Positions 16,484-30,918 of a DNA stretch of 64,000 nt are shown piece after piece (the first letter of the stretch is position 1; the number at the start of each line of letters is the position of its first letter). The stretch is from positions 1-64,000 of IMG/VR virus record IMGVR_UViG_3300025133_000072; one strand, written 5' to 3'. Under the pieces are notes generated by a model. That model made no database searches, was not told the origin of the DNA, and saw only the letters and a program-made list of their open reading frames with translations. The DNA is from a virus. Both the position numbers and the translations under genes were made by a program.

Positions 16484-16967
16484 ACTCTTTCTATTTCTCC
16501 TTCTTGTTTGCTCCTGCTCTTCTGTTGAATTCACAAACCTTCCCGAACCCTTCACAGCTTCTCGTGGAGACAAATCCAAAGAGTTCCCTGCTGGAGTGTT
16601 CATCGAGAAGAAGCAATGGGAATCTCATCTCCTGATAATCGTCTCTGACCAGGAAACAATAGCTCGTTTGAAATTGAGAAACGATGCCTTTGTGCAAAAG
16701 GAAAAAATCTACAAGGAAATTCTCCAGGGAAAAGATGAACTTTGGGAGCAGAAAAAGCAGATCGAAATCGAACAGAAACAGATAAGAGAAGATCTGAATG
16801 TTTTGTACGAAGAGAAGTTCCGGGTCAAAGACGAGATCATAGAAGTTTACAAGGAGAAAGAAAAAACCCTCCAGTATAAACTGAAGGGCTCCAGATTCCT
16901 TCAAAAGGTTTCGCTTGTAACCGGACTGTGGATCGGCTACAAAGTGTCTAAGATCTTAGACTTTTAG
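16473..16967 (+). CDS. putative lipoprotein, spanin-like
   Basis: MSFKLFLFLLLVCSC lipobox-like signal, coiled coil, hydrophobic C-terminus; start reassigned from 16386. Confidence 0.5.
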   Translation: MSFKLFLFLLLVCSCSSVEFTNLPEPFTASRGDKSKEFPAGVFIEKKQWESHLLIIVSDQETIARLKLRNDAFVQKEKIYKEILQGKDELWEQKKQIEIEQKQIREDLNVLYEEKFRVKDEIIEVYKEKEKTLQYKLKGSRFLQKVSLVTGLWIGYKVSKILDF

Positions 16968-17671
16968 ATGTACCTACCGTGTAAAATTCCATGTCTGCTT
17001 AAAGCAGAACATCCTATGTTTCCTGTGGCGTGAACTAATCCCTCAAAGATAAAAGGAATTCCCGCTTTTTGTTTCTTCCCTTTTTTCATCGTGGAATAAA
17101 TATCAGCGAGTTTATCCACGGAGATTTTAGTTCCGATTTTATCTAAGGTCCCTGTTTTCATTAAAAGAGATATTTCAGGATCTTTGTCATCTTCGATCTT
17201 GGCATAGATCCCAGCGTCTTGATCATATTTTTTCAGAAATTTAATAACCATGCTCTGGAATTCTTTCCTGGGCATATCTTCTGGTTTGACGAACAACAAA
17301 GAATCTTCCTCACTCTTAAAAGATTTACCGTCTTCCTTCTCTTCTCTCCAGAATCCATTGAGAAGGTATCCTCCTATTTTCTTAGAATTGAATTCTTTCA
17401 GAATATCCCTGTTAGCTTTTATATTCTTTTTGTGTTGATCTCTTTGGTCTTTTGTCCATTCGCTCTTTGGCCTTGAATGGTCTGTGTTATATGGATCTCT
17501 CCAACCTGTAAACACAGTAAAATCATCCTCTTTTACTCGTTGAAGTAACCGGGATAATTTAGCTTCGGAAATAGGCATGGAATTAGAAAAATCCGGGGTT
17601 TCTCTTTCCTGGGCTTCTTCTAATGCTTCGGATAATTTGTCAGTGAGGGTTAGGGTATGGGAGTAGTTCAT
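16964..17671 (-). CDS. conserved phage protein (DUF3293-like), possible internal head protein
   Basis: LSRL...FTGWR...N..I...GY..NG.W.E...EDS...KYDQD pattern; acidic leader LSEALEEAQE. Confidence 0.6.
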   Translation of the reverse strand: MNYSHTLTLTDKLSEALEEAQERETPDFSNSMPISEAKLSRLLQRVKEDDFTVFTGWRDPYNTDHSRPKSEWTKDQRDQHKKNIKANRDILKEFNSKKIGGYLLNGFWREEKEDGKSFKSEEDSLLFVKPEDMPRKEFQSMVIKFLKKYDQDAGIYAKIEDDKDPEISLLMKTGTLDKIGTKISVDKLADIYSTMKKGKKQKAGIPFIFEGLVHATGNIGCSALSRHGILHGRYI

Positions 17672-18412: not shown

Positions 18413-18850
18413 TTACCCGTAAGTTAGGTGAGCATTGGGAGCAGGGGTATTCACAGGAGGAAAGAACCTGTCTGCTTTAGTTCGTAGATCTCGAACCCTG
18501 TATTTCGTGTAGATCTCTTCAGTGCCTTCATCACAGGCCACTTCCCCATTAAACAAAAGAACCCGATCCTCATCCACTAGAAAAGTCATATCGATCAGTG
18601 GATAAGAAAGCTGAGGGATCAATTTTCGGATAACCTCTATGGTCTTTCTTTGTTTTTGGATAGAGAGTCCTTTTTTCTTCAGCGCACAACAAAGGTCTAT
18701 TTGAAATAGATCAGTGAAGGTATACAATCTATACTTAGACTTCCTTCGATATGAAGGTTTGATGAAGTTAGTCTTGTCCCAATATTGGATCTGCCTGTAA
18801 GACAGGTTTGTGATCTTAGCTACCTCTTGTGGAACAAAAAATGATTTCAT
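18413..18850 (-). CDS. MerR-family HTH transcriptional regulator
   Basis: EVAKITNLSYRQIQYWDKTNFIKPS...YRLYTFTDL...LKKKGLSIQK. Confidence 0.9.
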   Translation of the reverse strand: MKSFFVPQEVAKITNLSYRQIQYWDKTNFIKPSYRRKSKYRLYTFTDLFQIDLCCALKKKGLSIQKQRKTIEVIRKLIPQLSYPLIDMTFLVDEDRVLLFNGEVACDEGTEEIYTKYRVRDLRTKADRFFPPVNTPAPNAHLTYG

Positions 18851-19654: not shown

Positions 19655-20044
19655 TTAGGACTTGGGAGGTTCTAAGCGCACCGAGTCCTCGAAAAACGAC
19701 TCATACGCTTCGTGAACATCTTCAGCAAATTTAGTGTTGCTCTCATTTAACAATGTTTTGATCTGAGGACTACTGATGGGAGTCCAACGAGCTTTGAAAG
19801 TTATCTCAAACTCTACCGGGAAATCCTTGCGGAGATCCCCGAGCCTATCCTGATCCCAGCCCATTTTCTCTTTAGATATGATGATCGCCTTGCCCGAACC
19901 TGTTTCTAGCGTTACGGAAGACTTGCCTTGGGGAACCGGATTTGATTTGATCAACTCGGCTTTAAGAGCTTTAAGCTCTTTAGTAAATTTTTCCGAGAGT
20001 CTTTTGAGCTTTAGCGCTCTTCTGATTTTGTCTTCTGTTTTCAT
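19655..20044 (-). CDS. hypothetical protein
   Basis: AAGGAG RBS and a TGTTATACT promoter cassette upstream. Confidence 0.75.
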   Translation of the reverse strand: MKTEDKIRRALKLKRLSEKFTKELKALKAELIKSNPVPQGKSSVTLETGSGKAIIISKEKMGWDQDRLGDLRKDFPVEFEITFKARWTPISSPQIKTLLNESNTKFAEDVHEAYESFFEDSVRLEPPKS

Positions 20045-20144
20045 GCTGCTCCTTTGTCTACCTACTCTTATAGTATAACACTTCTATAAGATCTTGTATA
20101 GTATTATAGTCTTTATTGAATATGGAACATGATATACTCTCTCT

Positions 20145-20561
20145 ATGCTAAGTAGAATATCAGATTATTTTCTCCAGGGTGTGTTTGTTGGTTTGGGTGC
20201 TTCAGTCGTGGCTTTTTTAAGTTGGTCAGCTTTGAGGCAGCATGAGATTGAAACCGGGATCTTGTTTCAAATGAAAATGGAATCGCAGGCTATAAAAATG
20301 ACCTTGGAACATGTGGCTCAGGATGCCGGACATTTAAAAGGGAGACTCCAGGTATTGGAAGATCGGGAAATTGATAAATTTGTTAAGAAGATTCAGGAGC
20401 CTGAGTCAGAGAACGGAAGTAGTCTAGTTCCTGACGAACCTTATTCTGAAGAGGTTCCAATTCACGAGCCTCTCGACTACCACAAGCAGTACATGGAACA
20501 GAGTCCAATGCAGCGACTAGAGATCCAACAGATGCGCCTTCCACGGAAGACATCCCCTTGA
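20145..20561 (+). CDS. hypothetical membrane-anchored protein
   Basis: N-terminal TM (FLQGVFVGLGASVVAFLSW), coiled coil; TGATATACT upstream. Confidence 0.6.
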   Translation: MLSRISDYFLQGVFVGLGASVVAFLSWSALRQHEIETGILFQMKMESQAIKMTLEHVAQDAGHLKGRLQVLEDREIDKFVKKIQEPESENGSSLVPDEPYSEEVPIHEPLDYHKQYMEQSPMQRLEIQQMRLPRKTSP

Positions 20562-20750: not shown

Positions 20751-21275
20751 TCAACGGTTATACGCATAGAAAGTCTCCTCTTCTCGCCTGCTGAAAGCAT
20801 CCACAATATACAGAGGAAAGGACCCATTTTTGAAAAAATGATCTATGTGCCTGCCCTGAACTATGCCGTATTCATTTCTTTTTCCGCATATATCTACCCA
20901 ATAGATTTCTTTGGATTCTATCTTGAATTGAATGGAAGGGGAATCCTGTTCAAAAGCATCCATCGTAGATTGAAATCGATTGCCCCATTCCGTGGATAGT
21001 TGAGGCTGAATATCATGCTCCAAATAAGCTTCACCCCATTTGGCTTGAGCATATCCCAAGCATTTTCTGATCCTCATGGCATAAGAACTGTCCATGATAT
21101 AGGTGTGTCTTTCCTCTTCCATAGTCCCCAAGCTTTTCAGATCCAGTACGCCTCTGATTAAGCCTTGTATACCAAGGAGAATATCTGCGTGGCGTGGAGA
21201 CCGTTTTTTCTTTCTGTCGAGTCGAGGAAAAATAGGCGTTACCAAAAGGACTTGAATGGATTCTTCTTCAATCAT
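20751..21275 (-). CDS. short diverged DUF3150-like paralog
   Basis: RLDRK, IRG...KSL, RIRK...AKW align by eye with 22234..23088. Confidence 0.5.
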   Translation of the reverse strand: MIEEESIQVLLVTPIFPRLDRKKKRSPRHADILLGIQGLIRGVLDLKSLGTMEEERHTYIMDSSYAMRIRKCLGYAQAKWGEAYLEHDIQPQLSTEWGNRFQSTMDAFEQDSPSIQFKIESKEIYWVDICGKRNEYGIVQGRHIDHFFKNGSFPLYIVDAFSRREEETFYAYNR

Positions 21276-21699
21276 CGATAGCCTTTGACATTATTTCCAG
21301 GTGTGTTTTCTTCTCCAGATCCTTCGGGAGCATAAGCACTTTTCTCAATCGGTGCATAGGGCTGTCGGGGTCTTCAAAAAGAGATTGGTATTCTTGATCA
21401 TATCTCTGAGCAATCTCCTGAAATTCGTTTTGGAGTGTGGACAGGATCTCTCGGAAGTCTTTCATAAGATCGATTTCGTAAATGATCCAGAACTCATTTC
21501 CATTATATCGCTTTGCTCGAATGCCGTGTTCCTTTTGAAATTCTTCCAGGGCATTTTCGATCTTAGCTCCAAAGCAATTCATCTCACTCCGGAGAACCCC
21601 CATTTCTGGAACCTTGTCCATTTGAGTTCGGAGCCTGTGATCATTAGAGGGCTCCCATATTTTGATGATTATGGTCGTTTTTAGATATTCTGTACCCAT
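21268..21699 (-). CDS. short diverged DUF3150-like paralog
   Basis: I.I.IW, DFRE...F....Y...Y, LPKDLEKK; AAGGA RBS before MGTEYLK. Confidence 0.55.
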   Translation of the reverse strand: MGTEYLKTTIIIKIWEPSNDHRLRTQMDKVPEMGVLRSEMNCFGAKIENALEEFQKEHGIRAKRYNGNEFWIIYEIDLMKDFREILSTLQNEFQEIAQRYDQEYQSLFEDPDSPMHRLRKVLMLPKDLEKKTHLEIMSKAIDD

Positions 21700-21712
21700 G
21701 CCTATCCTTTGC

Positions 21713-22156
21713 TTAAGTCCATTTAGGCTCTTCAAAATGATGGGGGTCGGGTGCTTCTAGTGCCTCATCCGTTAATTCGATTTCGATGGTAAGGACGAAT
21801 AGACTATCCAAAGTCTCTTTGAATTCAGGTCCATTACCTCCGTATTTTGTAGCCATTTCCTCTTTTGTTTTTTCCCAGGAGGTTTTGACTTTTTCAATAT
21901 GCTTTCTAAAATCCAGGGCCTCTGATCCCGGAACCAAATAAGTGGTCCAACGATCCGAGCCGAATGGAGCATGTTCTGAATTCCTTTTTACTAAAACCCA
22001 ACCCCTTACTTCATGAGCAGTTGCCAGGAGATCGAATAATGTGTTTATGCAGTCGAAACTCTCTCCTCCTATATTCAGAGATTTTCCAAACACTGAATTT
22101 TTTCTTGTTTCCCATTCTTCTACGTGGGAATAGATTCTGACTTTTAGATTTTTCAT
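21713..22156 (-). CDS. short diverged DUF3150-like paralog
   Basis: VRG...APF...YLVP...DFRK..E..K..W...Y; GAAGGAGG RBS. Confidence 0.6.
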   Translation of the reverse strand: MKNLKVRIYSHVEEWETRKNSVFGKSLNIGGESFDCINTLFDLLATAHEVRGWVLVKRNSEHAPFGSDRWTTYLVPGSEALDFRKHIEKVKTSWEKTKEEMATKYGGNGPEFKETLDSLFVLTIEIELTDEALEAPDPHHFEEPKWT

Positions 22157-22233
22157 TTAAAAAAACCTCCTTCCTACAGGTATATCCAGAGCCTCCTTTT
22201 TTCAGAAGCCCTGGATAGTTACTTGTCCTTGAA

Positions 22234-23088
22234 TTAGAATCCAAGGGAATTGATATTCCCCAGGATGTCGTTGGCGATCTCGGCGGTACTCTTGCGCTTC
22301 TTTTCATCTTCCCTGAGTTCTTCCGGAGAGTATTTCGAGACTTCCGATAGGCGCTTGCCCAGTTCCTCGATGTTCTCATCATCCGAAATATTCAACCCTG
22401 GAAGAATTCCAAGAAGTTCTGAGATGTTATTGATCAAGCTGTTTTTGAAGATCTTGGGCTTGCCCTCTTCACGATCCTCAGCCAGCCTGTCTGTAACCGA
22501 ATGAGCCACTTTCTTGATCCTGTTATACAGATCTCTCAAAGTATCCTCTTCCGTAGACTTAATGGATTCTGCGACTGACTTACGGATCTCTTCCATGTCC
22601 TCATCGTCTAGTCCTGCAATCCTGAAATCCGAGCTATCCGGAACCGGATAAGCCTTGACATCAAAAGCGAACTTGTCGGAAATCTCAGCCGGGAATTCGT
22701 TGATGTCATACAGATCTCCCAGACGCTCTCTGGCCTCTTCACGAGCTACGTCATAGTTCGCAACGAGCCTAGCAACAGCATCATTCCACTTGCCATGATA
22801 CTCAGCTTCCTTCTTGCGGAAGTCCGAGAAAAGCTTGATGGGAAGGACCCTGGAGCCTGTATCGCACCAAGGCAGCGTCATTTCATAAAACATCCCACGG
22901 ATCTCTCCTGCTAGGGATTCGACCTCTTTGAGATGCTCTTTGGAAATCAGGCGCTTGTTGTAGCGACCAGCATCCTTAGCAGCCCCATTGTTTTCGTGTA
23001 CTTCTTTGGTCGCTTTGCGATCCAGCTTACGAGCAGTCCACCTTGAAATGCTCAGATTTACTAAAATGGATTTAGTGTGTAACCCCAT
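22234..23088 (-). CDS. DUF3150-like conserved phage protein (full length)
   Basis: ILVNLSISRWTARKLDRKAT...TLPW.D.G.R.LP...PVP...DFR...LN..DD...LRED...R; GGAGG RBS. Confidence 0.7.
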   Translation of the reverse strand: MGLHTKSILVNLSISRWTARKLDRKATKEVHENNGAAKDAGRYNKRLISKEHLKEVESLAGEIRGMFYEMTLPWCDTGSRVLPIKLFSDFRKKEAEYHGKWNDAVARLVANYDVAREEARERLGDLYDINEFPAEISDKFAFDVKAYPVPDSSDFRIAGLDDEDMEEIRKSVAESIKSTEEDTLRDLYNRIKKVAHSVTDRLAEDREEGKPKIFKNSLINNISELLGILPGLNISDDENIEELGKRLSEVSKYSPEELREDEKKRKSTAEIANDILGNINSLGF

Positions 23089-23173
23089 CTCCAACCTCCA
23101 GTTAGTTTATACTTTGTTTCCCACTCTTTTAGTATAACACCTTTCTATTAGAAAGTACATGTTGTTTTAGTTT

Positions 23174-23404
23174 TTATCCCTCTTCCTCTTCCAATTCATC
23201 CTCTAAAAGCTCAATCCACTCTCGAAAGTTGATGAGATCATGCTCAAACGAGAGCCAATCCACATCGGTCATCAAAGAAATTGCATCCACTTCCCCTTTG
23301 AAGGATTCAAGAGCTAGACGCTTTGTTTCCGGGGATGTAGCCACTCTAGCCAGATAATTGGCTTTGGCCTTCTCTAATCTTTCTGCTGGATTTAATCGTG
23401 TCAT
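23174..23404 (-). CDS. hypothetical protein
   Basis: GAGGAGG RBS; 76 aa. Confidence 0.7.
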   Translation of the reverse strand: MTRLNPAERLEKAKANYLARVATSPETKRLALESFKGEVDAISLMTDVDWLSFEHDLINFREWIELLEDELEEEEG

Positions 23405-23416
23405 CTCAAAACCTCC

Positions 23417-23733
23417 TCAAACATCTTCCATGTAAATTGATTTTCTAGCCCTTGCCCACTCAGGGATATATCCAAAGGAATGATAAAAATCTTCGATTTC
23501 GTATCCTTCTGCTGGAGTGATAGTTCCCCTTTGTATCCCATCTGCAACATGGAGAAAAATAAAAGCCCCATGTCCTTTGGGATTCCCGTCCTTGTCTTTT
23601 CTATATGAATGAAAACGATAGGTCATTTCCAGTGTCTCCTTTGAAAGGGAGTCATGGATATATGGAGGGAGTCCTCTGCGAATTGCCTTTAATGCGTGAT
23701 CGTTGAACAATGACGCATGTGATCTCGTATACC
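23417..23733 (-). CDS. hypothetical protein (start near MGYTRSHA, approximate)
   Basis: AGGAGG RBS inside ORF 23417..23785 precedes MGY. Confidence 0.55.
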
Positions 23734-23747
23734 CCATTTCTAACCTC

Positions 23748-23954
23748 CTAAGTCCATTTAACAGTAAAGTTTTTTGTTCCCACATTTAAGATCATTCCAC
23801 GACGATTTGCTATACTCTTCATAATGTTGATAGCTTTGGTAAATTCGTTTGCATCATCGTTAAGCGCATTCAAAACTAAATCTTTAGGAACCTTGTGATT
23901 AGTTTTGTAAAGATCACCCATAGCCATGTGAGCTATAATTGATGTGTTTTCCAT
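23748..23954 (-). CDS. hypothetical protein
   Basis: AAGGAGG RBS within the repeated promoter cassette. Confidence 0.7.
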   Translation of the reverse strand: MENTSIIAHMAMGDLYKTNHKVPKDLVLNALNDDANEFTKAINIMKSIANRRGMILNVGTKNFTVKWT

Positions 23955-24030
23955 CTTGAACCTCCTTAGTTCTTATCTTCTTCCCACCTACATATATATT
24001 ATAACAGGTTTATATAAGAATAGCAAAGAT
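23952..24030 (-). promoter_or_regulatory. promoter-RBS cassette, inverted homolog of the copies at 31635 and 32027
   Basis: reverse complement reads TTCTAATAC...TTGCTA-17-TATAATATATATGTAGGTGGGAAGAAGATAAGAACTAAGGAGGTTCAAGATG. Confidence 0.85.
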
Positions 24031-24109
24031 GTATTAGAATCGAACAAGTCTCTTATAAAACAAGAACCCCCGGACTTTCCAGGGGCCTTGTTGTTAAGGA
24101 AGTTCGACT

Positions 24110-25138
24110 TTAGAAGTCATCGCCGTCGGAACTCATGTCCTTGGCAATCCAGTCTAAGAAAACCTTATTCTCAAGAGCTTCGGGATCACGTCCGTTGACG
24201 ATCTCTACCATGAGACTAATGAACTCGCCATTGTCTCTCAGGTACTTAATCGCATTTCCGATAGTAACCTTATTTACTTTCATGGCGATTGCTGCGGTTA
24301 CGGCATACCTTGCACAGAGCTTGTCTGGCAGATTGATCGTGGTTGGATCATCTGCGGTAAGGATGTCATCCAAATTTGGAATCTGAGTGTAGTAATCCTC
24401 AAAGCTCTTCAGAGCTGTCGCAGCCTCTTCCCCCACTGCTCCAGAAGTCGTTTCGTAATTGGCAATCTTCATTTTGCGAAGATTAGAAACAAACTCCCAG
24501 GAACGAGGCGTTGGAAATCCTCTTTCGCAGGGCTTCTTAGGTGGATCAAGAAGCTTGTCAGCCGAGAAGTTCAGGAATGCGATGATTGTAGGATCAATGG
24601 CATTCTTTGCAGCCCACTTAGTCCAATCAGCAATCGCCACGTCAAATTCCAGGTGTGTGAAACGATTAGCCAGAGGAGCTGGGAGTCGGTTTGTTACTCC
24701 ACGATCTTCGGCCCTGTTTCCTGCTGCTACGATGATCCAGCCTGGAGGAAGGGTATAGGAACCGACTTTCCTATCCAAGACCAACTGATAAGCTGCTGCC
24801 ATTACGCTGGGAGGGGCTGCGTTAATCTCGTCCAGGAAAAGAATCCCTTTGTCCCCGTGTGTATCCAGGTGAGGGAGAATGGGGGATTCGGAAAAGCTTG
24901 TTCGATTGCTGGACTTATCCACAACTGGGATTCCCCTCATATCCACAGGATCGATCTGAGAAAGCCTCAGATCCTCGAAACTGATTCCCAGATCATCGGC
25001 TACCTTCTTAACCACCGAACTTTTTCCTACTCCCATGGCTCCCCACAAAAAGACGGGGATATGCACAAGATCTTTAGGATTGTTCAGGTTGTGGCCTATA
25101 AGAGCCTTTAAGAATTTTTCTGTTTCCATCGGTGTCAT
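24110..25138 (-). CDS. MoxR/dynein-related AAA+ ATPase
   Basis: Walker A GAMGVGKS, Walker B ILFLDEIN, IVAAGNR, LANRF, TPRSWE; GAGGAGG RBS before MTPME. Confidence 0.9.
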   Translation of the reverse strand: MTPMETEKFLKALIGHNLNNPKDLVHIPVFLWGAMGVGKSSVVKKVADDLGISFEDLRLSQIDPVDMRGIPVVDKSSNRTSFSESPILPHLDTHGDKGILFLDEINAAPPSVMAAAYQLVLDRKVGSYTLPPGWIIVAAGNRAEDRGVTNRLPAPLANRFTHLEFDVAIADWTKWAAKNAIDPTIIAFLNFSADKLLDPPKKPCERGFPTPRSWEFVSNLRKMKIANYETTSGAVGEEAATALKSFEDYYTQIPNLDDILTADDPTTINLPDKLCARYAVTAAIAMKVNKVTIGNAIKYLRDNGEFISLMVEIVNGRDPEALENKVFLDWIAKDMSSDGDDF

Positions 25139-25276
25139 GTTGAACCTCCTCATTTGGTTGTGTTTTCCTGACCTACTCTCTTAGTATAACCCACGGCTAA
25201 AAGCTCTGTCAATCATTTTTATTCTTTGCAAACTCTCTTATAAACCCCTATAATATAGAGAAGGAGGTTTGACAAC

Positions 25277-25762
25277 ATGAGTGGAATTTTAGTTAGAGTA
25301 TCATACTGTGGGACTGCCAAAATTCTCCACTTTCTTAAAGAGCTTACTTATAACACCAGCCCTTTAAGAATACATAAGAAGAAAGCCATAGACTCTAGAG
25401 GGATAAAAGAGGTTGAACAGGCTTTGAATTTTCTGTGGAATCGGTATCGAAGGAACCTGCCGTTTAAAGGGTCTTCTTGCTCTAATAACAGAGCATTGGT
25501 CTTTTGGTTAAAAGCGGGAGCTATTGATTTCAGAAAGACTTTGGAAGTGTTCAAAGCCGACTGGAAAAAAGATGTTATCAATGTTCTGAGAGATCATCTT
25601 CCTTTCAATGTGTCTGAAGTAAAAGAAAGCATAGAGGAGTTTATGGACGAGTCCCTTAATATACAAGTGGACTCATCTTACCTGGATTACAAACCAAGTC
25701 TAGGGGGAATGCTCAGTAAAACATCTTTTGATATTGAGGTGGGAAATGAAAATTCACCTTAA
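25277..25762 (+). CDS. short diverged DUF3150-like paralog
   Basis: ILVRVS..TAK, KK.I....IKEVE, LPF, DFRK..E....W match 22234..23088. Confidence 0.65.
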   Translation: MSGILVRVSYCGTAKILHFLKELTYNTSPLRIHKKKAIDSRGIKEVEQALNFLWNRYRRNLPFKGSSCSNNRALVFWLKAGAIDFRKTLEVFKADWKKDVINVLRDHLPFNVSEVKESIEEFMDESLNIQVDSSYLDYKPSLGGMLSKTSFDIEVGNENSP

Positions 25763-26159
25763 AACCAGATACTCTGATCTCTATAATCTCCTCTTGTCTC
25801 ATAAAACAAGAGCCCAGAAAAAAGGTCCTGGCTTCTGGCCTGTTGTAAATTTTTATGAGAGCATGATCCATGCCTTGTATTTTTTTAATAGGCCCCTTGA
25901 AGGAATTCATAGAGCGCTGGGCTCGAAAAGTCTCTTATGTTTGACAGGTGGGTACGTGGTTGCTCCTTCGGAAATTTTGTCTGTTAGAAGAAGCTTAGAA
26001 TCCGCTAAACAAGGATGGGTGGAAACTAGGATTACCTACGTGTCTGAATACTCTCGATGGGTGGCTGGTATGCATTCTCGTTTCCCTCAGATTTCTTTTC
26101 CGTCCCCGGCATTAATTGAATCTTTTTTAGATCTATCTTACGGAGTTGAAGATGATTAA
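25746..26159 (+). CDS. short diverged DUF3150-like paralog
   Basis: KSL...GYVVAP...R..LE.AK..W.....Y..EY...FPSP; GAGGTG RBS. Confidence 0.55.
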   Translation: MKIHLKTRYSDLYNLLLSHKTRAQKKGPGFWPVVNFYESMIHALYFFNRPLEGIHRALGSKSLLCLTGGYVVAPSEILSVRRSLESAKQGWVETRITYVSEYSRWVAGMHSRFPQISFPSPALIESFLDLSYGVEDD

Positions 26160-26609
26160 CGAGCCTGGAATATTAAACCGAGACGAGCCTGTTTTGAGAT
26201 ATGCATTGAAGACTCTATCCGATGTTCAAGGAGCCTTAGATATGGTGCCTGCATATGTTTTGATTAAATAGAAGGACGACAGGACTACTCCAGGTCAATA
26301 GGATTCCATAGAAAAATTCTCTATCTTTTAGAAGACAAACTTCCTCATTGTATTTTTGACAAGTTTGTTCAAGGGTCTGATCTGCTTTTGTTAAGGAGGC
26401 ATTTAACTGTTCAAAAAGGTATATGGAATGAAGCTGTAGCAGAACTCTTGGATCATTTGGATTATGGGGAAACTCATGATTTCATTCGAAGAGGATTTCC
26501 GATAGAAGAGTTCAAAAATAATTTGAAGGTAAAACATATCCTATTCAAATGGGATGAGGAGACAGACAGATGGGTGAACGAAGAAAAGAAGCAGGAGAAG
26601 GGGACATGA
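26152..26609 (+). pseudogene. DUF3150-like paralog with a 1-nt frameshift at ~26268
   Basis: MINEPG...VLIK* continues in the -1 frame as IEGRQDY...KLPHC...GIWNEAVAELL...FPIEEFK (compare TLPWC, GKWNDAVARLV, FPAEISD). Confidence 0.6.
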
Positions 26610-27034
26610 ATAATTTTCCCGTTCTAGAATATGAAACCAAACGAACCGAAGTAGTCGGATGGAAAAGGCTTGTACGAAGAGCCCACAAAGCTCAACTTGA
26701 ATCAGAAGCAGATGTTAAGTTAGCTATGTCCCCTTATGACATGTTTGAACTTCTTACATATGAACAGAAGTTAAGAGGAATCCTTGTTCAAGTCTCTTGC
26801 CTGGAATTTACTAATGAGAAATTTACTTTTAGTTTCTACGGAATAAGTCCTTCTTCGGTACTTCAAATCAGAAACGAATTGGAATTGTTCAGTCAAAAAT
26901 GGGATGAGGCTTTGAATCGGATTCTTTCTGTTTATGAAAGGCAATGGGAAGGTGGTTTGAAAAGACCTTATCTTCCACCACCAGAAGAATTAAAAGAGCG
27001 CTGGAGATTCCGAATTAAGGAGAAATCCGAATGA
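26606..27034 (+). CDS. short diverged DUF3150-like paralog
   Basis: KLRG, R..LE...KWDEALNR...Y, LPPPEELKERWRF. Confidence 0.6.
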   Translation: MNNFPVLEYETKRTEVVGWKRLVRRAHKAQLESEADVKLAMSPYDMFELLTYEQKLRGILVQVSCLEFTNEKFTFSFYGISPSSVLQIRNELELFSQKWDEALNRILSVYERQWEGGLKRPYLPPPEELKERWRFRIKEKSE

Positions 27035-27411
27035 TGCGCCTCATTGTAAAGTGTAAATGGAATTCTTTTCATGAGCATCTCCAAGGACTTAACACCCTGT
27101 TTCTTGTAGATAGGGACCCTCGTTTTACAAAGCCTTTTAACACTGTGTGGATGAAAAATATAGTTGGGATTATCGCTCCTATAGGGGACATAGCACACAA
27201 CACAAACACAGCACTCAGCCACGTAGATTCCATCGTAGAGATAAGAAAGATATGGACTAAATCCCAATTGCTATGGGAAGAGGAATCTAGGCTCGTTCTT
27301 CAGAAATGGGAGAATGTTTTGGTGTATCAAAAACAGGTTGAGATTTTCAATCTTGCCGATTCCAAACAAGTAATCGAATGGCTGCATAGGAGTCATGAAC
27401 TCAATTTATAA
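27031..27411 (+). CDS. hypothetical protein, possible further DUF3150-like paralog
   Basis: AAGGAG RBS; weak EIRK.W....LW pattern. Confidence 0.5.
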   Translation: MMRLIVKCKWNSFHEHLQGLNTLFLVDRDPRFTKPFNTVWMKNIVGIIAPIGDIAHNTNTALSHVDSIVEIRKIWTKSQLLWEEESRLVLQKWENVLVYQKQVEIFNLADSKQVIEWLHRSHELNL

Positions 27412-27509
27412 ATTTATTCTGTCTGTTTCTAAGACAAAGTAGACACTCTATTATAGACATGCTATACTAAAAGAGTGGGGTAAGAAGTAAGAGACTCAAG
27501 GAGGTTTGA

Positions 27510-28739
27510 ATGTCAGATAAAAAAGTTTTTAACAGTAAGGCCGAGAAGAAATACAAAAGGGCCAAAAGATCCCTTATGATTCTTCATCCTTTTTTTGGGC
27601 CTTTGATTGTTCGATTGAAGCCTATTCAGAAAGTGGAAGTAGGAACGGCTGGGGTAGATGGGGAATCCTTATTTTACAATCCAGAGTGGTTTAATACCCT
27701 TTCCGATCAGGAAGCTGTTTGTCTGCTGGCTCATGAAGTCATGCATTGTGCGCTCGGACATCATACCCGTCGAGGGAAGAAGGATAATAAGCTGTGGAAT
27801 ATTGCTTGCGATCATGCAATTAATATTCTTCTAGATGCCCATGGGAACATCCTTCCTCCAAATCCAGTAATGGATAAGAAATATGACGGATGGCCCTCAG
27901 AGAAGATCTATGCAGACATCTACGAAGATCAGCCCCAGAATCCAGGCGGAGGAGCGGGTAATGGAATGTCTGGTAGTGGGACTGGGAACAGTCCTGGGAG
28001 CAATCCTGGAAATGGTCAGCCTGATCCTAATGCTCCAGGGCAGTGGGGTCAGATTTTAGATGCTCCTAAAGGCTCTGAAAAGGAATCAGCGTCTGACTGG
28101 GAAGCAGCTACTATCGGTGCTGTAAAGATCGCTCAGATGCAGAAGAGCAAAGGAACCAATCCTGGATTTGCAGACAGATTGGCTGACATGTTCGGCCTGT
28201 ATCACAAAGTTTCCTGGAAAGAGGTTCTCAAGAACTTTGTCCAGACCTCTATTGGTGTGGATGATTTTACCTGGAAACGTCCTGGTAGAAGGGGTCTTTC
28301 GGAAGATCTGTACCTCCCTCATAGAGAAGGGGTCAAACTTGATGGAGTTTGGGTAGCTATTGATACATCCGGGTCTATCGATGACAAGACTTTGCAGATG
28401 TTCAAGACTGAAATTGAAGGAATCATGGAAATGTTTCCGAATAGCGAAGTCGGCTTGATGTTTTGTGACGCAAGGCTGCACAACATTTCAATGCAGAGCG
28501 CTCCTCTGGATTTCAAACCAAAGGGCGGAGGCGGAACTGATTTTCGTCCGGTATTCAATTATTTTGAGGAGCAGTACATCAATCCCAAGTGTGTGATTTA
28601 CTTAACCGATCTTTACGGAAGCTTTCCGGAAGAGCCTCCTTTTTACCCGACATTGTGGGTTGTAAAGGACGGGCCTTCAAAGCCTGAAGATCATGTGCCT
28701 TTTGGCATTACAATTGTACTTGAGGAAGATGATGATTAA
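27510..28739 (+). CDS. putative metallopeptidase + VWA domain protein (DUF2201-like)
   Basis: HEVMH zincin motif, WNIACD.AIN, Gly/Asn/Pro linker, MIDAS DTSGS, GGGGTDFRP, YLTDLYG. Confidence 0.9.
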   Translation: MSDKKVFNSKAEKKYKRAKRSLMILHPFFGPLIVRLKPIQKVEVGTAGVDGESLFYNPEWFNTLSDQEAVCLLAHEVMHCALGHHTRRGKKDNKLWNIACDHAINILLDAHGNILPPNPVMDKKYDGWPSEKIYADIYEDQPQNPGGGAGNGMSGSGTGNSPGSNPGNGQPDPNAPGQWGQILDAPKGSEKESASDWEAATIGAVKIAQMQKSKGTNPGFADRLADMFGLYHKVSWKEVLKNFVQTSIGVDDFTWKRPGRRGLSEDLYLPHREGVKLDGVWVAIDTSGSIDDKTLQMFKTEIEGIMEMFPNSEVGLMFCDARLHNISMQSAPLDFKPKGGGGTDFRPVFNYFEEQYINPKCVIYLTDLYGSFPEEPPFYPTLWVVKDGPSKPEDHVPFGITIVLEEDDD

Positions 28740-28777: not shown

Positions 28778-29110
28778 GTGACAAGGGGGATTTCAATTCC
28801 CCCTTTGCTCAGAATAAGAACAGGGTTTTTCAATTGGTGGGCGGATCTCCCTGATAAAATCTTAAATAAAGCTTCCTCTAAATTAGATGAAGCAAAGCTG
28901 AGAGATGATGTTAGTTTGAGTATGGACTTGATCCCCTTGATGCCTTTTCATAAAATCAACAGAGGAAGAATGAACTGGAGATCTACAAATTATCGAGAAT
29001 CTGAAGATTTTTTTGTAACAGATGAGCCTACTTTCAAAGATCTGACAAAGGATATGCCCAAGGCAAAAAGAAAAGAGATCCGAAAATCAAAAACTCTTGT
29101 GGTGGTGTAA
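28778..29110 (+). CDS. hypothetical protein
   Basis: 110-aa ORF, TAATG-coupled to the helicase. Confidence 0.55.
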   Translation: MTRGISIPPLLRIRTGFFNWWADLPDKILNKASSKLDEAKLRDDVSLSMDLIPLMPFHKINRGRMNWRSTNYRESEDFFVTDEPTFKDLTKDMPKAKRKEIRKSKTLVVV

Positions 29111-30918
29111 TGGGCAAAGCGACTTGTATAGGTAACGAAATAATCATCCAATTCAGATATGACCCGGTTCTTGTAGCCAAGATAAAAGACATCCCCGGAA
29201 GGAAATACTGTCCTGATACAAAAGCCTGGAAAGTCCCTGCTTGTGATTTGAGCCTTGATCATCTAAACGGAATCCCTGAGATCCGCATGACTCAATCTGT
29301 GGCTCAGGCGCAGGGTAGAAATCCAATGAATACTCAACCTGGAAAAACTGGGGAAATCATAGTTCATTTTCCTTATGACGAAGAGTTGATCAAAGACATC
29401 AAAACAGTCTATGGAATTCGATGGGACAAGGAGAAAAAATACTGGACTGCTCCTTATAAAACCCACACCCTCAAATATCTTCGGAAACTTGGATTTGATA
29501 CTTCAGAGACTCCGGAAGAAAGAATCTCTTTTGACATCACCCCGACTGCCGGACAGCTTCCAGATCATTTTCTTGATGGCCTGTACAATTTCCAATTGAT
29601 AGGCTTTCGCTTTATCGAACGCATGGGTGGAAGGGCTTTGATAGCCGATCAGATGGGGCTGGGAAAAACAATAATTGCTCTTGCTTACCTAGCTGCTCAT
29701 CCTGAAATGCGTCCGGCTATTATTGTCTGTCCTTCTAGTGTGAAGCTCAACTGGGGAAGAGAGATAAACAAGTGGCTCAAGAAGCCTTGTACTGTCTTGT
29801 CTGGAAGGGTAGCAGATCCAAGGATGCAAAGTGACATATCCATCATCAATTATGAGATCCTGCACAATTCTGATGATACTGAAAAATCCTGGGTAGAGCA
29901 CTTCAAGAAAAAGGTGAAGCCTAGAATAGTGATTGCTGATGAGTGTCATTATTTCAAAACAGACAAATCCCTGAGAACAAAGGCAGTCAAGAAACTAGGG
30001 AAAATCACCCCTTATTTCGTTGCTCTAAGTGGGACTCCGATTACCAACAGGCCCATCGATGCTTTCAATGCTCTTAATATTATTCGTCCAGAGATCTTTC
30101 CTTCTCGGTGGGAATTTGGAAAAAGATACTGTGATCTTAAAGATACTTGGCAGGGCTTGGATTGGACTGGGAATTCTAATGAGGCGGAGCTTCACGAGCT
30201 TCTCAAAGAAACTTGTATGATTCGCAGAGTCAAGAGCGAGGTACTCCAGGATCTTCCTCCTATTCAAAGAACCATCGTCCCCATGGGAATTTCCAATGCA
30301 GCTTACAATTCCTACAAAAAGAAGCTGGAGCAGATGACCCAGTACCAAGGATCTACTGTAGGAGCCATGCAGGAAATTGAGAAAATGAAACAAGACATTC
30401 TGAGAGCAAAACTCCCTTCCTGTATTCAATGGATTCAAGACTTTGTAGATACCGGGGAAAAGCTCGTGGTTTTCACTTATCATCATGAGGCTATAGATGC
30501 GCTCAAAGCTAAGTTCAAGGACATAGCTGTTGTATTGGATGGACGAACCCCGATGAAGAAAAGACAAAAGGCTATTGATGAGTTCCAAGAAGGAGATCGG
30601 GCTCGTTTGTTCCTGGGCAATATTAAGGCAGCAGGAACCGGGATAACTCTGACAGCAGCTTCTAATACCTGTTTCATAGAATTGCCCTGGATACCCTCTG
30701 ATTTAGACCAATGTGAAAGCAGAACGAACCGTATTGGAAGTACAGGAACCTCTAATAATGCTTGGTATTTATTAGCTGACGGGACTTTCGAAGAGTGCAT
30801 AGCACAGGTTCTGGATTCCAAGAGAAAAGTAATAGACAAGATCATTGACGGAAAAGAGACTGACGAAAGCTCTCTCCTGTCGGAACTCATGAGGTTGATC
30901 AAAGGAGGATTAACATGA
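29110..30918 (+). CDS. SNF2-family helicase/annealase with two HARP-like domains (SMARCAL1-like)
   Basis: two F.YD..L...IK...G..(Y/W)....K.W repeats; ADQMGLGKT, DECH, LSGTP..NRP, GITLTAAS, QCESR..RIG. Confidence 0.9.
   Translation: MGKATCIGNEIIIQFRYDPVLVAKIKDIPGRKYCPDTKAWKVPACDLSLDHLNGIPEIRMTQSVAQAQGRNPMNTQPGKTGEIIVHFPYDEELIKDIKTVYGIRWDKEKKYWTAPYKTHTLKYLRKLGFDTSETPEERISFDITPTAGQLPDHFLDGLYNFQLIGFRFIERMGGRALIADQMGLGKTIIALAYLAAHPEMRPAIIVCPSSVKLNWGREINKWLKKPCTVLSGRVADPRMQSDISIINYEILHNSDDTEKSWVEHFKKKVKPRIVIADECHYFKTDKSLRTKAVKKLGKITPYFVALSGTPITNRPIDAFNALNIIRPEIFPSRWEFGKRYCDLKDTWQGLDWTGNSNEAELHELLKETCMIRRVKSEVLQDLPPIQRTIVPMGISNAAYNSYKKKLEQMTQYQGSTVGAMQEIEKMKQDILRAKLPSCIQWIQDFVDTGEKLVVFTYHHEAIDALKAKFKDIAVVLDGRTPMKKRQKAIDEFQEGDRARLFLGNIKAAGTGITLTAASNTCFIELPWIPSDLDQCESRTNRIGSTGTSNNAWYLLADGTFEECIAQVLDSKRKVIDKIIDGKETDESSLLSELMRLIKGGLT

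Follow-up and report, generated by a model that had tools for sequence, protein, structure and literature searches.

A stretch of viral DNA, namely the first 64 kb of the 75.7-kb IMG/VR virus record IMGVR_UViG_3300025133_000072 (hereafter the window), carries a gene trio for a MoxR-type AAA+ ATPase, a DUF3150-like protein and a zincin metallopeptidase-VWA protein, together with eight short open reading frames (ORFs) of 126-174 aa. Of these, three minus-strand ORFs come after the DUF3150 gene, and five plus-strand ORFs lead up to the VWA gene. The locus thus raises the question of where the short ORFs came from and what they do beside the trio. The analysis described here indicated that at least six of them are strongly diverged copies of a part of the DUF3150 protein, its N-terminal ~150 aa, and we hold with high confidence that this paralogy is real. 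The genes concerned are as follows.

24110..25138, minus strand: MoxR-type AAA+ ATPase, 342 aa (AAA_3, AAA_5, phrog_1297), Shine-Dalgarno sequence AGGAGG before ATG 25138
22234..23088, minus strand: full-length DUF3150-like protein, 284 aa, N-terminal alpha/beta domain (residues ~1-160) and C-terminal four-helix bundle
27510..28739, plus strand: zincin metallopeptidase (HExxH) and VWA protein, 409 aa (DUF2201_N and DUF2201)
20751..21275, minus strand: short paralogue resembling the DUF3150 N-terminal domain (N-domain), 174 aa, closing the leftward DUF3150 operon (firm)
21268..21699, minus strand: short paralogue, 143 aa from ATG 21699 or 155 aa if TTG 21735 is the start (probable)
21713..22156, minus strand: short paralogue resembling the DUF3150 N-domain, 147 aa, strong Shine-Dalgarno sequence, directly 3' of the full-length gene (firm)
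25277..25762, plus strand: short paralogue resembling the DUF3150 N-domain, 161 aa, strong Shine-Dalgarno sequence (firm)
25746..26159, plus strand: short paralogue resembling the DUF3150 N-domain, 137 aa (firm)
26152..26609, plus strand: frameshifted paralogue (firm)
26606..27034, plus strand: short paralogue resembling the DUF3150 N-domain, 142 aa (firm)
27031..27411, plus strand: eighth paralogue, 126 aa (possible)

The short ORFs are named below by their first coordinate; ORF 26570 corresponds to gene 26606, ORF 25728 to gene 25746, and ORF 26268 to the frame-0 part of 26152-26609.

Identification of the core genes

The product of 24110-25138(-) exceeded the Pfam cut-offs for AAA_3 (38 bits; cut-off, 27) and AAA_5 (32.9 bits; cut-off, 22) and matched phrog_1297 with an E-value of 5.7e-88, and its translation displayed the Walker A (GAMGVGKS) and Walker B (LFLDE) motifs. 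The protein encoded by 27510-28739(+) matched DUF2201_N (E, 2.7e-42) and the DUF2201 VWA domain (E, 4.5e-22). Its residues H75, E76, H79 and H84 in the HExxH region, as well as D285, S287 and S289 in the DxSxS element of the metal-ion-dependent adhesion site (MIDAS), were invariant in 34 homologues.

The product of 22234-23088(-) scored 14.1 bits on Pfam PF11348, which is below the gathering score of 24.9, with a match spanning 5-196 of the 257 model positions. Nevertheless, it is a divergent DUF3150 protein by homology, fold and neighbourhood. It has 71 homologues (best E, 4.5e-54; coverage, 90-99%), 21 of which carry a precomputed PF11348 assignment, and the homologue from phage MinM2 is annotated as DUF3150. 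The AlphaFold2 (AF2) model of the protein (predicted local distance difference test, pLDDT, 92; predicted template-modelling score, pTM, 0.86) retrieved the DUF3150 domain-containing protein A0A6J7WV52 from BFVD with a template-modelling (TM) score of 0.84 and an E-value of 1.3e-19. Residues 9-150 of this model follow the element order b-a-a-b-a-a-b, and the C-terminal helical bundle resembled only generic four-helix bundles in the PDB. The composition of the trio was hence as described in the first-pass annotation of this DNA. A complex prediction for the VWA protein with the DUF3150 protein gave a score of 0.14 against a mark of 0.32 and was used neither for nor against an interaction.

Mutual relatedness of the short ORFs

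The short ORFs were compared with all 278 six-frame ORFs of the window, using shuffled and reversed sequences as controls. Pairwise BLAST and phmmer similarities were weak; in the first-pass phmmer search against the 277 other six-frame ORFs, the best match of seven of the nine candidates was another candidate. A jackhmmer search started from 21713-22156 gathered only 26570, 25277, 20751, 25728, the full-length DUF3150 protein and 26268-26609 out of the 278 ORFs, and a search started from 26570 also gathered 20751.

In leave-one-out profiles built as hidden Markov models (HMMs), each of the seven core members emerged as the top or joint-top non-member (E, 2.2e-7 to 0.01), and all seven real scores were higher than those of 300 out of 300 shuffles and of the member's own reversed sequence. 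The leave-one-out E-values were 2.2e-7 for 26606, 3.8e-7 for 21713, 4.6e-6 for the frame-0 part 26268, 3.9e-5 for 25746 (which also matched 26570 in phmmer with an E-value of 3e-4) and 3.6e-4 for 25277 (0/300 shuffles; best phmmer match 21713, E 0.0028). For 20751, the top non-member with an E-value of 0.002, the score was 12.3 bits, whereas none of its 300 shuffles exceeded 5.8 bits.

The two remaining ORFs gave less distinct results. The score of 21268 against the profile of the seven core members was not significant (18/300 shuffles). ORF 27031 was the top non-member of the profile of six short ORFs (E, 0.0099), with 12/300 and 11/500 shuffles reaching its score (p ~0.02-0.04), and shows the IRK...W motif in register. 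Its ESM Atlas model (pLDDT, 0.40) was too poor for use, and the clusters of RasGEF fragments returned by the Atlas feature search (0.96) were taken as chance matches to this poor model.

The joint alignment showed pairwise identities of 12-27%. The columns common to all nine sequences were R93, lying in an FRK/IRK/VRR motif, and an aromatic residue nine positions on (W102), while R66 was present in seven of the nine. At the DNA level, nothing beyond short chance matches was found between the paralogues, and no additional copies were detected elsewhere in the 75.7-kb record. The motifs by which the first-pass annotation had grouped these proteins (ILVNLS/ILVRVS, LKEVE/IKEVE, DFRK, and segments resembling KWNDAVARL and FPAEI) were indeed present in the translations, and the family was recovered by profile comparison. 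As for its count of about eight paralogues, six were found to be firm, one of them frameshifted, while 21268 is only a probable and 27031 only a possible member.

Probable derivation from the N-terminal domain of DUF3150

The link between the short ORFs and DUF3150 was assessed with an HMM and alignment of the DUF3150 family (81 sequences, designated A1), an alignment of the short ORFs (A2), and a set of 10,008 ORFs from 80 related viral loci and the window. Among the window ORFs, the DUF3150-family HMM ranked 21713 (E, 0.0012) and 21268 (E, 0.013; 9.0 bits) second and third after the full-length gene and aligned four further candidates on the same model region; none of 500 shuffles of 21268 reached 9.0 bits. 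Among the non-family sequences of the 10,008 ORFs, 21713 was the best match (E, 0.044) and 21268 the third. In the opposite direction, the profile of six short ORFs retrieved 15 non-member rows from the same set. Eleven of these rows were DUF3150 proteins, ten of them distinct, at a base rate of 0.8%. When window ORFs of at least 90 aa were compared with A1 by hhalign, 21713, 21268, 25277 and 26570 took ranks 1-4 of those scored, on columns 121-188, with 21268 covering columns 121-158. The comparison of A2 with A1 gave a P value of 0.016 and a probability of 2.9%, whereas six unrelated small-protein arrays used as controls gave P values of 0.12-0.68. Individual copies added collinear matches, namely a weak Pfam DUF3150 match of 25746 (73-121 to 73-121) and, in 21268, a DFRE motif, a long helix and LPKDLE in the same order as in the full-length protein. 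ORFs 20751 and 26268 were tied to DUF3150 only via the other short copies.

The structural predictions pointed in the same direction. The AF2 model of 21713, which was computed from the short paralogues alone without the full-length protein (pLDDT, 62; pTM, 0.54), has the element order b-a-a-b-a-a-b, matching residues 9-150 of the full-length model. Its BFVD ranks 1, 2, 3, 5 and 6 were the five best DUF3150-fold matches of the full-length model, and no more than eight BFVD entries reach E <=0.001 against the latter. For 26570, the ESM Atlas neighbours were viral clusters, one of which carries PF11348 on 17% of its members (TM, 0.57). As judged from these models, the short copies have the N-domain fold in the case of 21713, with Atlas support from 26570. 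The structural comparison proposed in the first-pass annotation agreed with this for 21713, the copy modelled with AF2, which shares five of its top six BFVD matches with the full-length protein. The central observation of that annotation, that the short ORFs align to the N-terminal ~150 aa of the full-length protein, was supported by the leave-one-out profiles, the shuffles, the HMM and hhalign ranks and the 21713 model.

The short ORFs stop at the equivalent of residue ~150-160, and the C-terminal four-helix bundle is gone. Of the family-invariant motifs of DUF3150 (W19, D25, G43-R44-x-N46-K47 and T73-x-P75-W76), the GRxNK block at positions 43-47 is kept by none of the short copies, and W19/R22/K23 are kept only in 21713, 21268 and 26570 (as Y). 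The short ORFs are, accordingly, N-domain-only derivatives of DUF3150 and not full members of the family. Since both the C-terminal bundle and the GRxNK block are missing, a mode of docking on the machine like that of the full-length protein cannot be assumed for them.

Coding potential and the frameshifted copy

All short ORFs except 20751 have a recognisable Shine-Dalgarno sequence, and most of them overlap the stop codon of a neighbour in the manner of coupled genes; by these signals they look like real genes. The starts at 23088, 25138, 25746 and 26606 are ATG codons with Shine-Dalgarno sequences, and proteins begun at such ATGs have the lengths of the gene calls in public protein collections (284, 137 and 142 aa).

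In the 26152 gene, frame 1 runs over 26152-26271 and ends with the stop codon TAG at 26269-26271, and the conserved core is carried by frame 0 at 26268-26609. Since frame 0 is open only from 26268, a -1 shift must be located at AAA-TAG (26266-26271). Coupling overlaps were found at both ends, namely ATGATTAA with the preceding stop at 26152 and ATGA with the next start at 26606, which indicates that the gene was once continuous and was interrupted by what amounts to the loss of 1 nt. In metagenome run X2, an independent sample and study, a contig covered 26135-26382 without any indel, so that the shift is no assembly slip of a single data set. The gene may be a pseudogene or may employ a programmed -1 shift. 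At position 26236, contigs from runs X1 and X2 both showed T>G relative to the window (Leu to Val in frame 1).

Promoters and transcription units

A 19-nt motif, GTTATACTAAAAGAGTRGG, containing the -10-like TATACT, occurs four times in the 64 kb against 0.01 expected. Putative signals of the region were located as follows.

20061-20079, minus strand: motif copy upstream of the 19655-20044(-) ORF
23120..23138, minus strand: motif copy upstream of the DUF3150 gene, exact match to GTTATACTAAAAGAGTRGG
23987-24014: looser motif copy next to the three small ORFs at 23174..23954
24065..24087, minus strand: strong terminator-like hairpin after the AAA gene (10-bp stem, 6 GC pairs, T-rich tail)
25172..25190, minus strand: motif copy upstream of the AAA gene, 1 mismatch (TTGACA-18-TATACT, 11/12)
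25226..25254, plus strand: sigma-70-like promoter of the rightward array (TTGCAA-17-TATAAT, consensus match), pointing away from the AAA promoter
27461..27479, plus strand: motif copy upstream of the VWA gene

These promoters are consensus matches, and the count of sigma-70-like sites in the region was not above chance. The regions upstream of the DUF3150 and VWA genes form a 61-nt inverted repeat (72%). The presence of GTTATACTAAAAGAGTRGG before the DUF3150, AAA and VWA genes agreed with the earlier statement that each core gene has its own, here predicted, promoter. Because neither the motif nor a terminator-like site was found between the DUF3150 gene and the left array, the latter is probably co-transcribed with DUF3150.

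Genomic surroundings

DNA nearly identical to the window was found in marine metagenome runs from three studies, with no RNA data set listed among the runs. The region had no nucleotide-level relative among 50,697 phage records by megablast, and a single-sequence scan of viral contigs returned no close relatives. The nearest named phages, as judged from the DUF3150 protein (31% identity), were the freshwater cyanophages MinM2, Pag-Yong1 and Pra-JY27. The window has a G+C content of ~42%, and genes for a replication initiator, a DnaB-like helicase, a DNA polymerase and a ribonucleotide reductase lie 3' of the region. The other neighbouring features were the following.

16964-17671, minus strand: S-adenosylmethionine (SAM)-lyase-like ORF (PF23780, 27.4 bits, just below the cut-off of 28)
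18413-18850, minus strand: MerR-family regulator, sharing the leftward arm with the SAM-lyase-like ORF and the AAA-DUF3150 block
23174..23954, minus strand: three small ORFs (76, 122 and 68 aa) between AAA and DUF3150
29110..30918, plus strand: SNF2-family helicase with an N-terminal HARP motif (annealing-helicase type), context of the module

The three small ORFs at 23174..23954 matched no family and had no homologues among the 80 loci, and the jackhmmer and profile/shuffle tests ruled them out as members of the paralogue family. ORF 20145-20561(+) (138 aa), with an N-terminal hydrophobic helix, matched the DUF3150-family HMM in its C-terminal part with 4.8 bits, a score equalled by none of 500 shuffles; this score is probably due to helical bias. 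PADLOC matched neither the trio nor the short ORFs to any defence system.

Distribution of the trio and rarity of the expansion

DUF3150 relatives are encoded by 528 IMG/VR contigs. In the 80 related viral loci, all of which were fetched centred on the module, the AAA, DUF3150 and VWA genes lay on one strand in 78, and the remaining two were cut at a contig end. The order was AAA-DUF3150-VWA in ~62 loci and DUF3150-AAA-VWA in 15, the spacing from DUF3150 to VWA was 0-2.3 kb where the two were neighbours, and an SNF2 helicase was found near the module in 29. The same trio in the same order is carried by the Burkholderia conjugative plasmid pBMC401 beside type IV secretion genes. In the IncC plasmid pSN254, the corresponding block comprises an AAA_5/CbbQ_C ATPase, a hypothetical protein, ssb, bet, exo, DUF3150 and a CobT-like VWA protein; with ssb, bet and exo standing between the ATPase and DUF3150, the IncC trio is split by recombination genes. 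In the pSN254 locus itself (NC_009140.1, 93624-101617), the hde operon, which has been defined by experiment and includes a homologue of Vcrx090, is followed directly by DUF3150 and the CobT-like VWA gene. The first-pass statement that this trio recurs in phages and in integrative and conjugative elements found counterparts in the 528 contigs, the 78 loci and the conjugative plasmids pBMC401 and pSN254. The conserved synteny would fit a physical and functional coupling of the ATPase with the VWA protein and with the third component.

The expansion itself had no such counterparts. No second DUF3150 copy was detectable in the 80 related loci, each having a single one, as the proposed copy-number survey of relatives revealed, and no homologue of the short ORFs was found there. 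A search of 1.84 billion protein representatives yielded no relatives of the short ORFs, as its sole additional matches (an FN3-repeat protein and a retrotransposon gag) were judged spurious, and a word-indexed search for stand-alone short DUF3150 N-domains returned none. The literature search likewise revealed nothing comparable to this DUF3150 expansion, in line with the earlier remark that no description of one was known, and DUF3150 itself is mentioned in one paper of the library searched. The module is therefore known but almost unstudied, and the new point is the derivation of the array members from DUF3150.

Arrays of small proteins of other kinds do occur in relatives. In at least six related loci, 3-7 diverged small paralogues form an array no more than a few kb from the module; as the loci were module-centred, these counts say nothing on enrichment near it. 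The arrays are located as follows.

L056:5097-6949, small array
L036:1865-3606, small array
L033:12334-13995, small array between AAA and VWA
L010:11040-11843, small array between DUF3150 and VWA
L048:4944-7238, small array
L081:2980-3906, small array

The families in L056 and L036 are mutually related (hhalign P, 7e-5). None of the six arrays gave any signal as a DUF3150 derivative.

Origin and possible role of the short copies

In the window, AAA and DUF3150 point leftward and VWA rightward. Re-inverting 20751-25153 yields the order AAA, DUF3150, eight copies, VWA and SNF2. Because the module is co-directional in relatives and this flip restores a single array beside DUF3150, we infer that the 5' half of the DUF3150 gene was tandemly duplicated at its own locus to give stand-alone N-domain genes, and that a later inversion of the AAA-DUF3150 half produced the present divergent layout; no inverted repeats were found at the inversion breakpoints. 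The copies have kept the domain core (R66, R93 and the aromatic residue at 102); all have lost the GRxNK block and the C-terminal bundle, and half of them the W19/K23 motif. They may represent diversified, exchangeable DUF3150 recognition domains that would act early in infection as partners or modulators of the ATPase/peptidase-VWA machine, serving establishment or counter-defence. An early or counter-defence context is suggested by the divergent promoters, the SAM-lyase-like ORF and MerR regulator in the leftward arm, and the replication genes downstream, and further by the IncC plasmids, in which DUF3150 and VWA directly follow the hde operon. A conserved cassette with repeated duplication of its N-domain and a machine-linked role of the products appears to be the best explanation overall, and we favour it with moderate confidence; the functional part taken by itself is offered only tentatively. 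A more specific version seems unlikely, namely a multi-specific counter-defence device in which every N-domain would recognise its own host protein, for example a defence component, and deliver it to the ATPase-protease to be remodelled or cleaved.

Several points weigh against the favoured explanation. Each sequence test linking the short family to DUF3150 was weak (HMM E-values of 0.001-0.04), and the signals, which appear concordant, are not independent. Only 21713 was modelled with AF2, its Foldseek E-values were 0.02-0.36 with a root-mean-square deviation of ~10 Å, and the argument is one of ranks. The membership of 27031 and 21268 is not secure. The frameshifted copy and the loss of family-invariant residues would be compatible with relaxed constraint or with a role that has nothing to do with the machine, and, with no homologue in 1.84 billion representatives, conservation and selection are beyond measurement. 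The IncC parallel is only an analogy, as the window AAA protein lacks CbbQ_C and showed no detectable similarity to IncC plasmids, and the VWA partners differ in type.

The main rival to the machine-linked reading is that the DUF3150-derived short proteins are now independent early effectors of host takeover or counter-defence, for which the neighbourhood is a mere site of duplication. The absence from all copies of GRxNK and the C-terminal bundle, the parts likeliest to make constant interactions within the module, would fit this idea, as would the sigma-70-like promoter of the right-hand array, which differs from the core-gene motif, and the unrelated small-protein arrays common in this region of related phages, which imply that small-gene arrays may be a general early-region feature. 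However, the left three copies appear to be co-transcribed with DUF3150 with no terminator-like site between, the array fills exactly the DUF3150-VWA interval, and the family-conserved R66 and R93 are retained, and we therefore regard independence as possible but doubtful. Functionless, decaying relics of the tandem duplication are improbable by comparison. Although one copy is frameshifted in two independent samples, the divergence is extreme (12-27% identity), and homologues were nowhere found among the 1.84 billion representatives, seven frames of 126-174 aa are still open at ~42% G+C and near-saturating divergence; since neutral decay would break frames long before identity reached 20%, it is an unlikely source of this pattern. 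The Shine-Dalgarno sequences (in all but 20751), the mostly stop-overlapping coupled arrangement, and the retained domain-core residues and order of secondary-structure elements also speak against decay.

Two further explanations concern the module as a whole and the resemblance itself. A role as a virion-assembly chaperone/protease has been proposed for the jumbo-phage MoxR-vWA-metallopeptidase pair (Iyer et al. 2021, PMC7824862), where the MoxR-vWA system for tail assembly of ATV (Acidianus two-tailed virus) is cited. In such a role of the present module, the small proteins would be assembly substrates or scaffolds. Here, the module lies between the early/counter-defence arm and the replication genes and not among structural genes, and the same trio occurs on conjugative plasmids, which build no virions, so that this role is very improbable. 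That the short ORFs resemble DUF3150 merely as unrelated helical proteins of similar composition is scarcely credible: the individually weak pairwise BLAST/phmmer matches and the richness in helices would allow it, but the shuffled and reversed controls and ~270 other window ORFs never matched the real scores, the matches are collinear, the six other small-protein arrays gave no signal, and the 21713 model, built without the full-length protein, retrieved DUF3150 proteins as its top BFVD matches.

The module is widespread, occurring in hundreds of phage contigs, cyanophages, Burkholderiales megaplasmids and IncC resistance plasmids. The expansion of one domain marks the DUF3150 N-domain as a variable, probably target-facing part of the machine, and the copies provide a natural set of variants that could serve in pull-downs and in screens for defence evasion. 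The expansion and the unrelated arrays elsewhere jointly suggest a rule that the module works with fast-evolving small partners, which, if it held, would bear on the establishment of phages and resistance plasmids in defended hosts. Were the multi-specific device real, the unrelated small-protein arrays accompanying the same module in other phages would be analogous repertoires.

Comparison with known systems

The MoxR-vWA chaperone/co-chaperone pairs RavA-ViaA, CbbQ-CbbO and NorQ-NorD and the jumbo-phage pair share with the window a MoxR AAA+ ATPase and a MIDAS-bearing VWA partner, and the jumbo-phage vWA protein, like that of the window, has a metallopeptidase domain at its N-terminus (Iyer et al. 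2021, PMC7824862). In contrast to the window, these pairs have no DUF3150 component and no paralogue array, and the roles proposed for them, enzyme maturation and virion assembly, fit neither the plasmid occurrences nor the position in the window.

The hde region of IncC plasmids (pVCR94 vcrx089-093; pSN254) resembles the window in combining a MoxR-class AAA_5 ATPase, DUF3150 (E, 4e-91) and a VWA protein on a mobile element. There, the AAA_5 ATPase Vcrx089 and Vcrx090 protect incoming plasmid DNA from type I restriction (Roy et al., PMC7498323). The IncC block is itself co-directional; unlike the window, its ATPase carries CbbQ_C, its VWA protein is CobT-like without a zincin domain, and ssb, bet and exo are interposed. 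Pfam gave no CbbQ_C match in the window AAA protein. The tblastn matches listed for the window DUF3150 protein included no IncC-type plasmid, their hosts being Burkholderiales-type and a few others, and the 30 rows listed for the AAA protein contained no enterobacterial or Vibrio record. Vcrx090 was also considered as a hidden relative of DUF3150 or of the short family and rejected (hhalign P, 0.075 and 0.71).

The arrays in the six other loci are like that of the window in consisting of diverged small paralogues beside the same module, but they show no similarity to DUF3150 or the short family (hhalign P, 0.12-0.84), and their members are shorter (63-150 aa). The closest counterpart of the window is the cassette of the phages MinM2, Pag-Yong1 and Pra-JY27, the 528 IMG/VR contigs and pBMC401, which consists of the same three families, with a 31-41% identical DUF3150 protein, an AAA protein matching phrog_1297, intact HExxH and MIDAS motifs, and often an SNF2 helicase downstream. 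Whereas the module genes of this cassette are co-directional with one DUF3150 copy per locus, the window has its AAA-DUF3150 half inverted and possesses 6-8 additional stand-alone copies of the N-domain.

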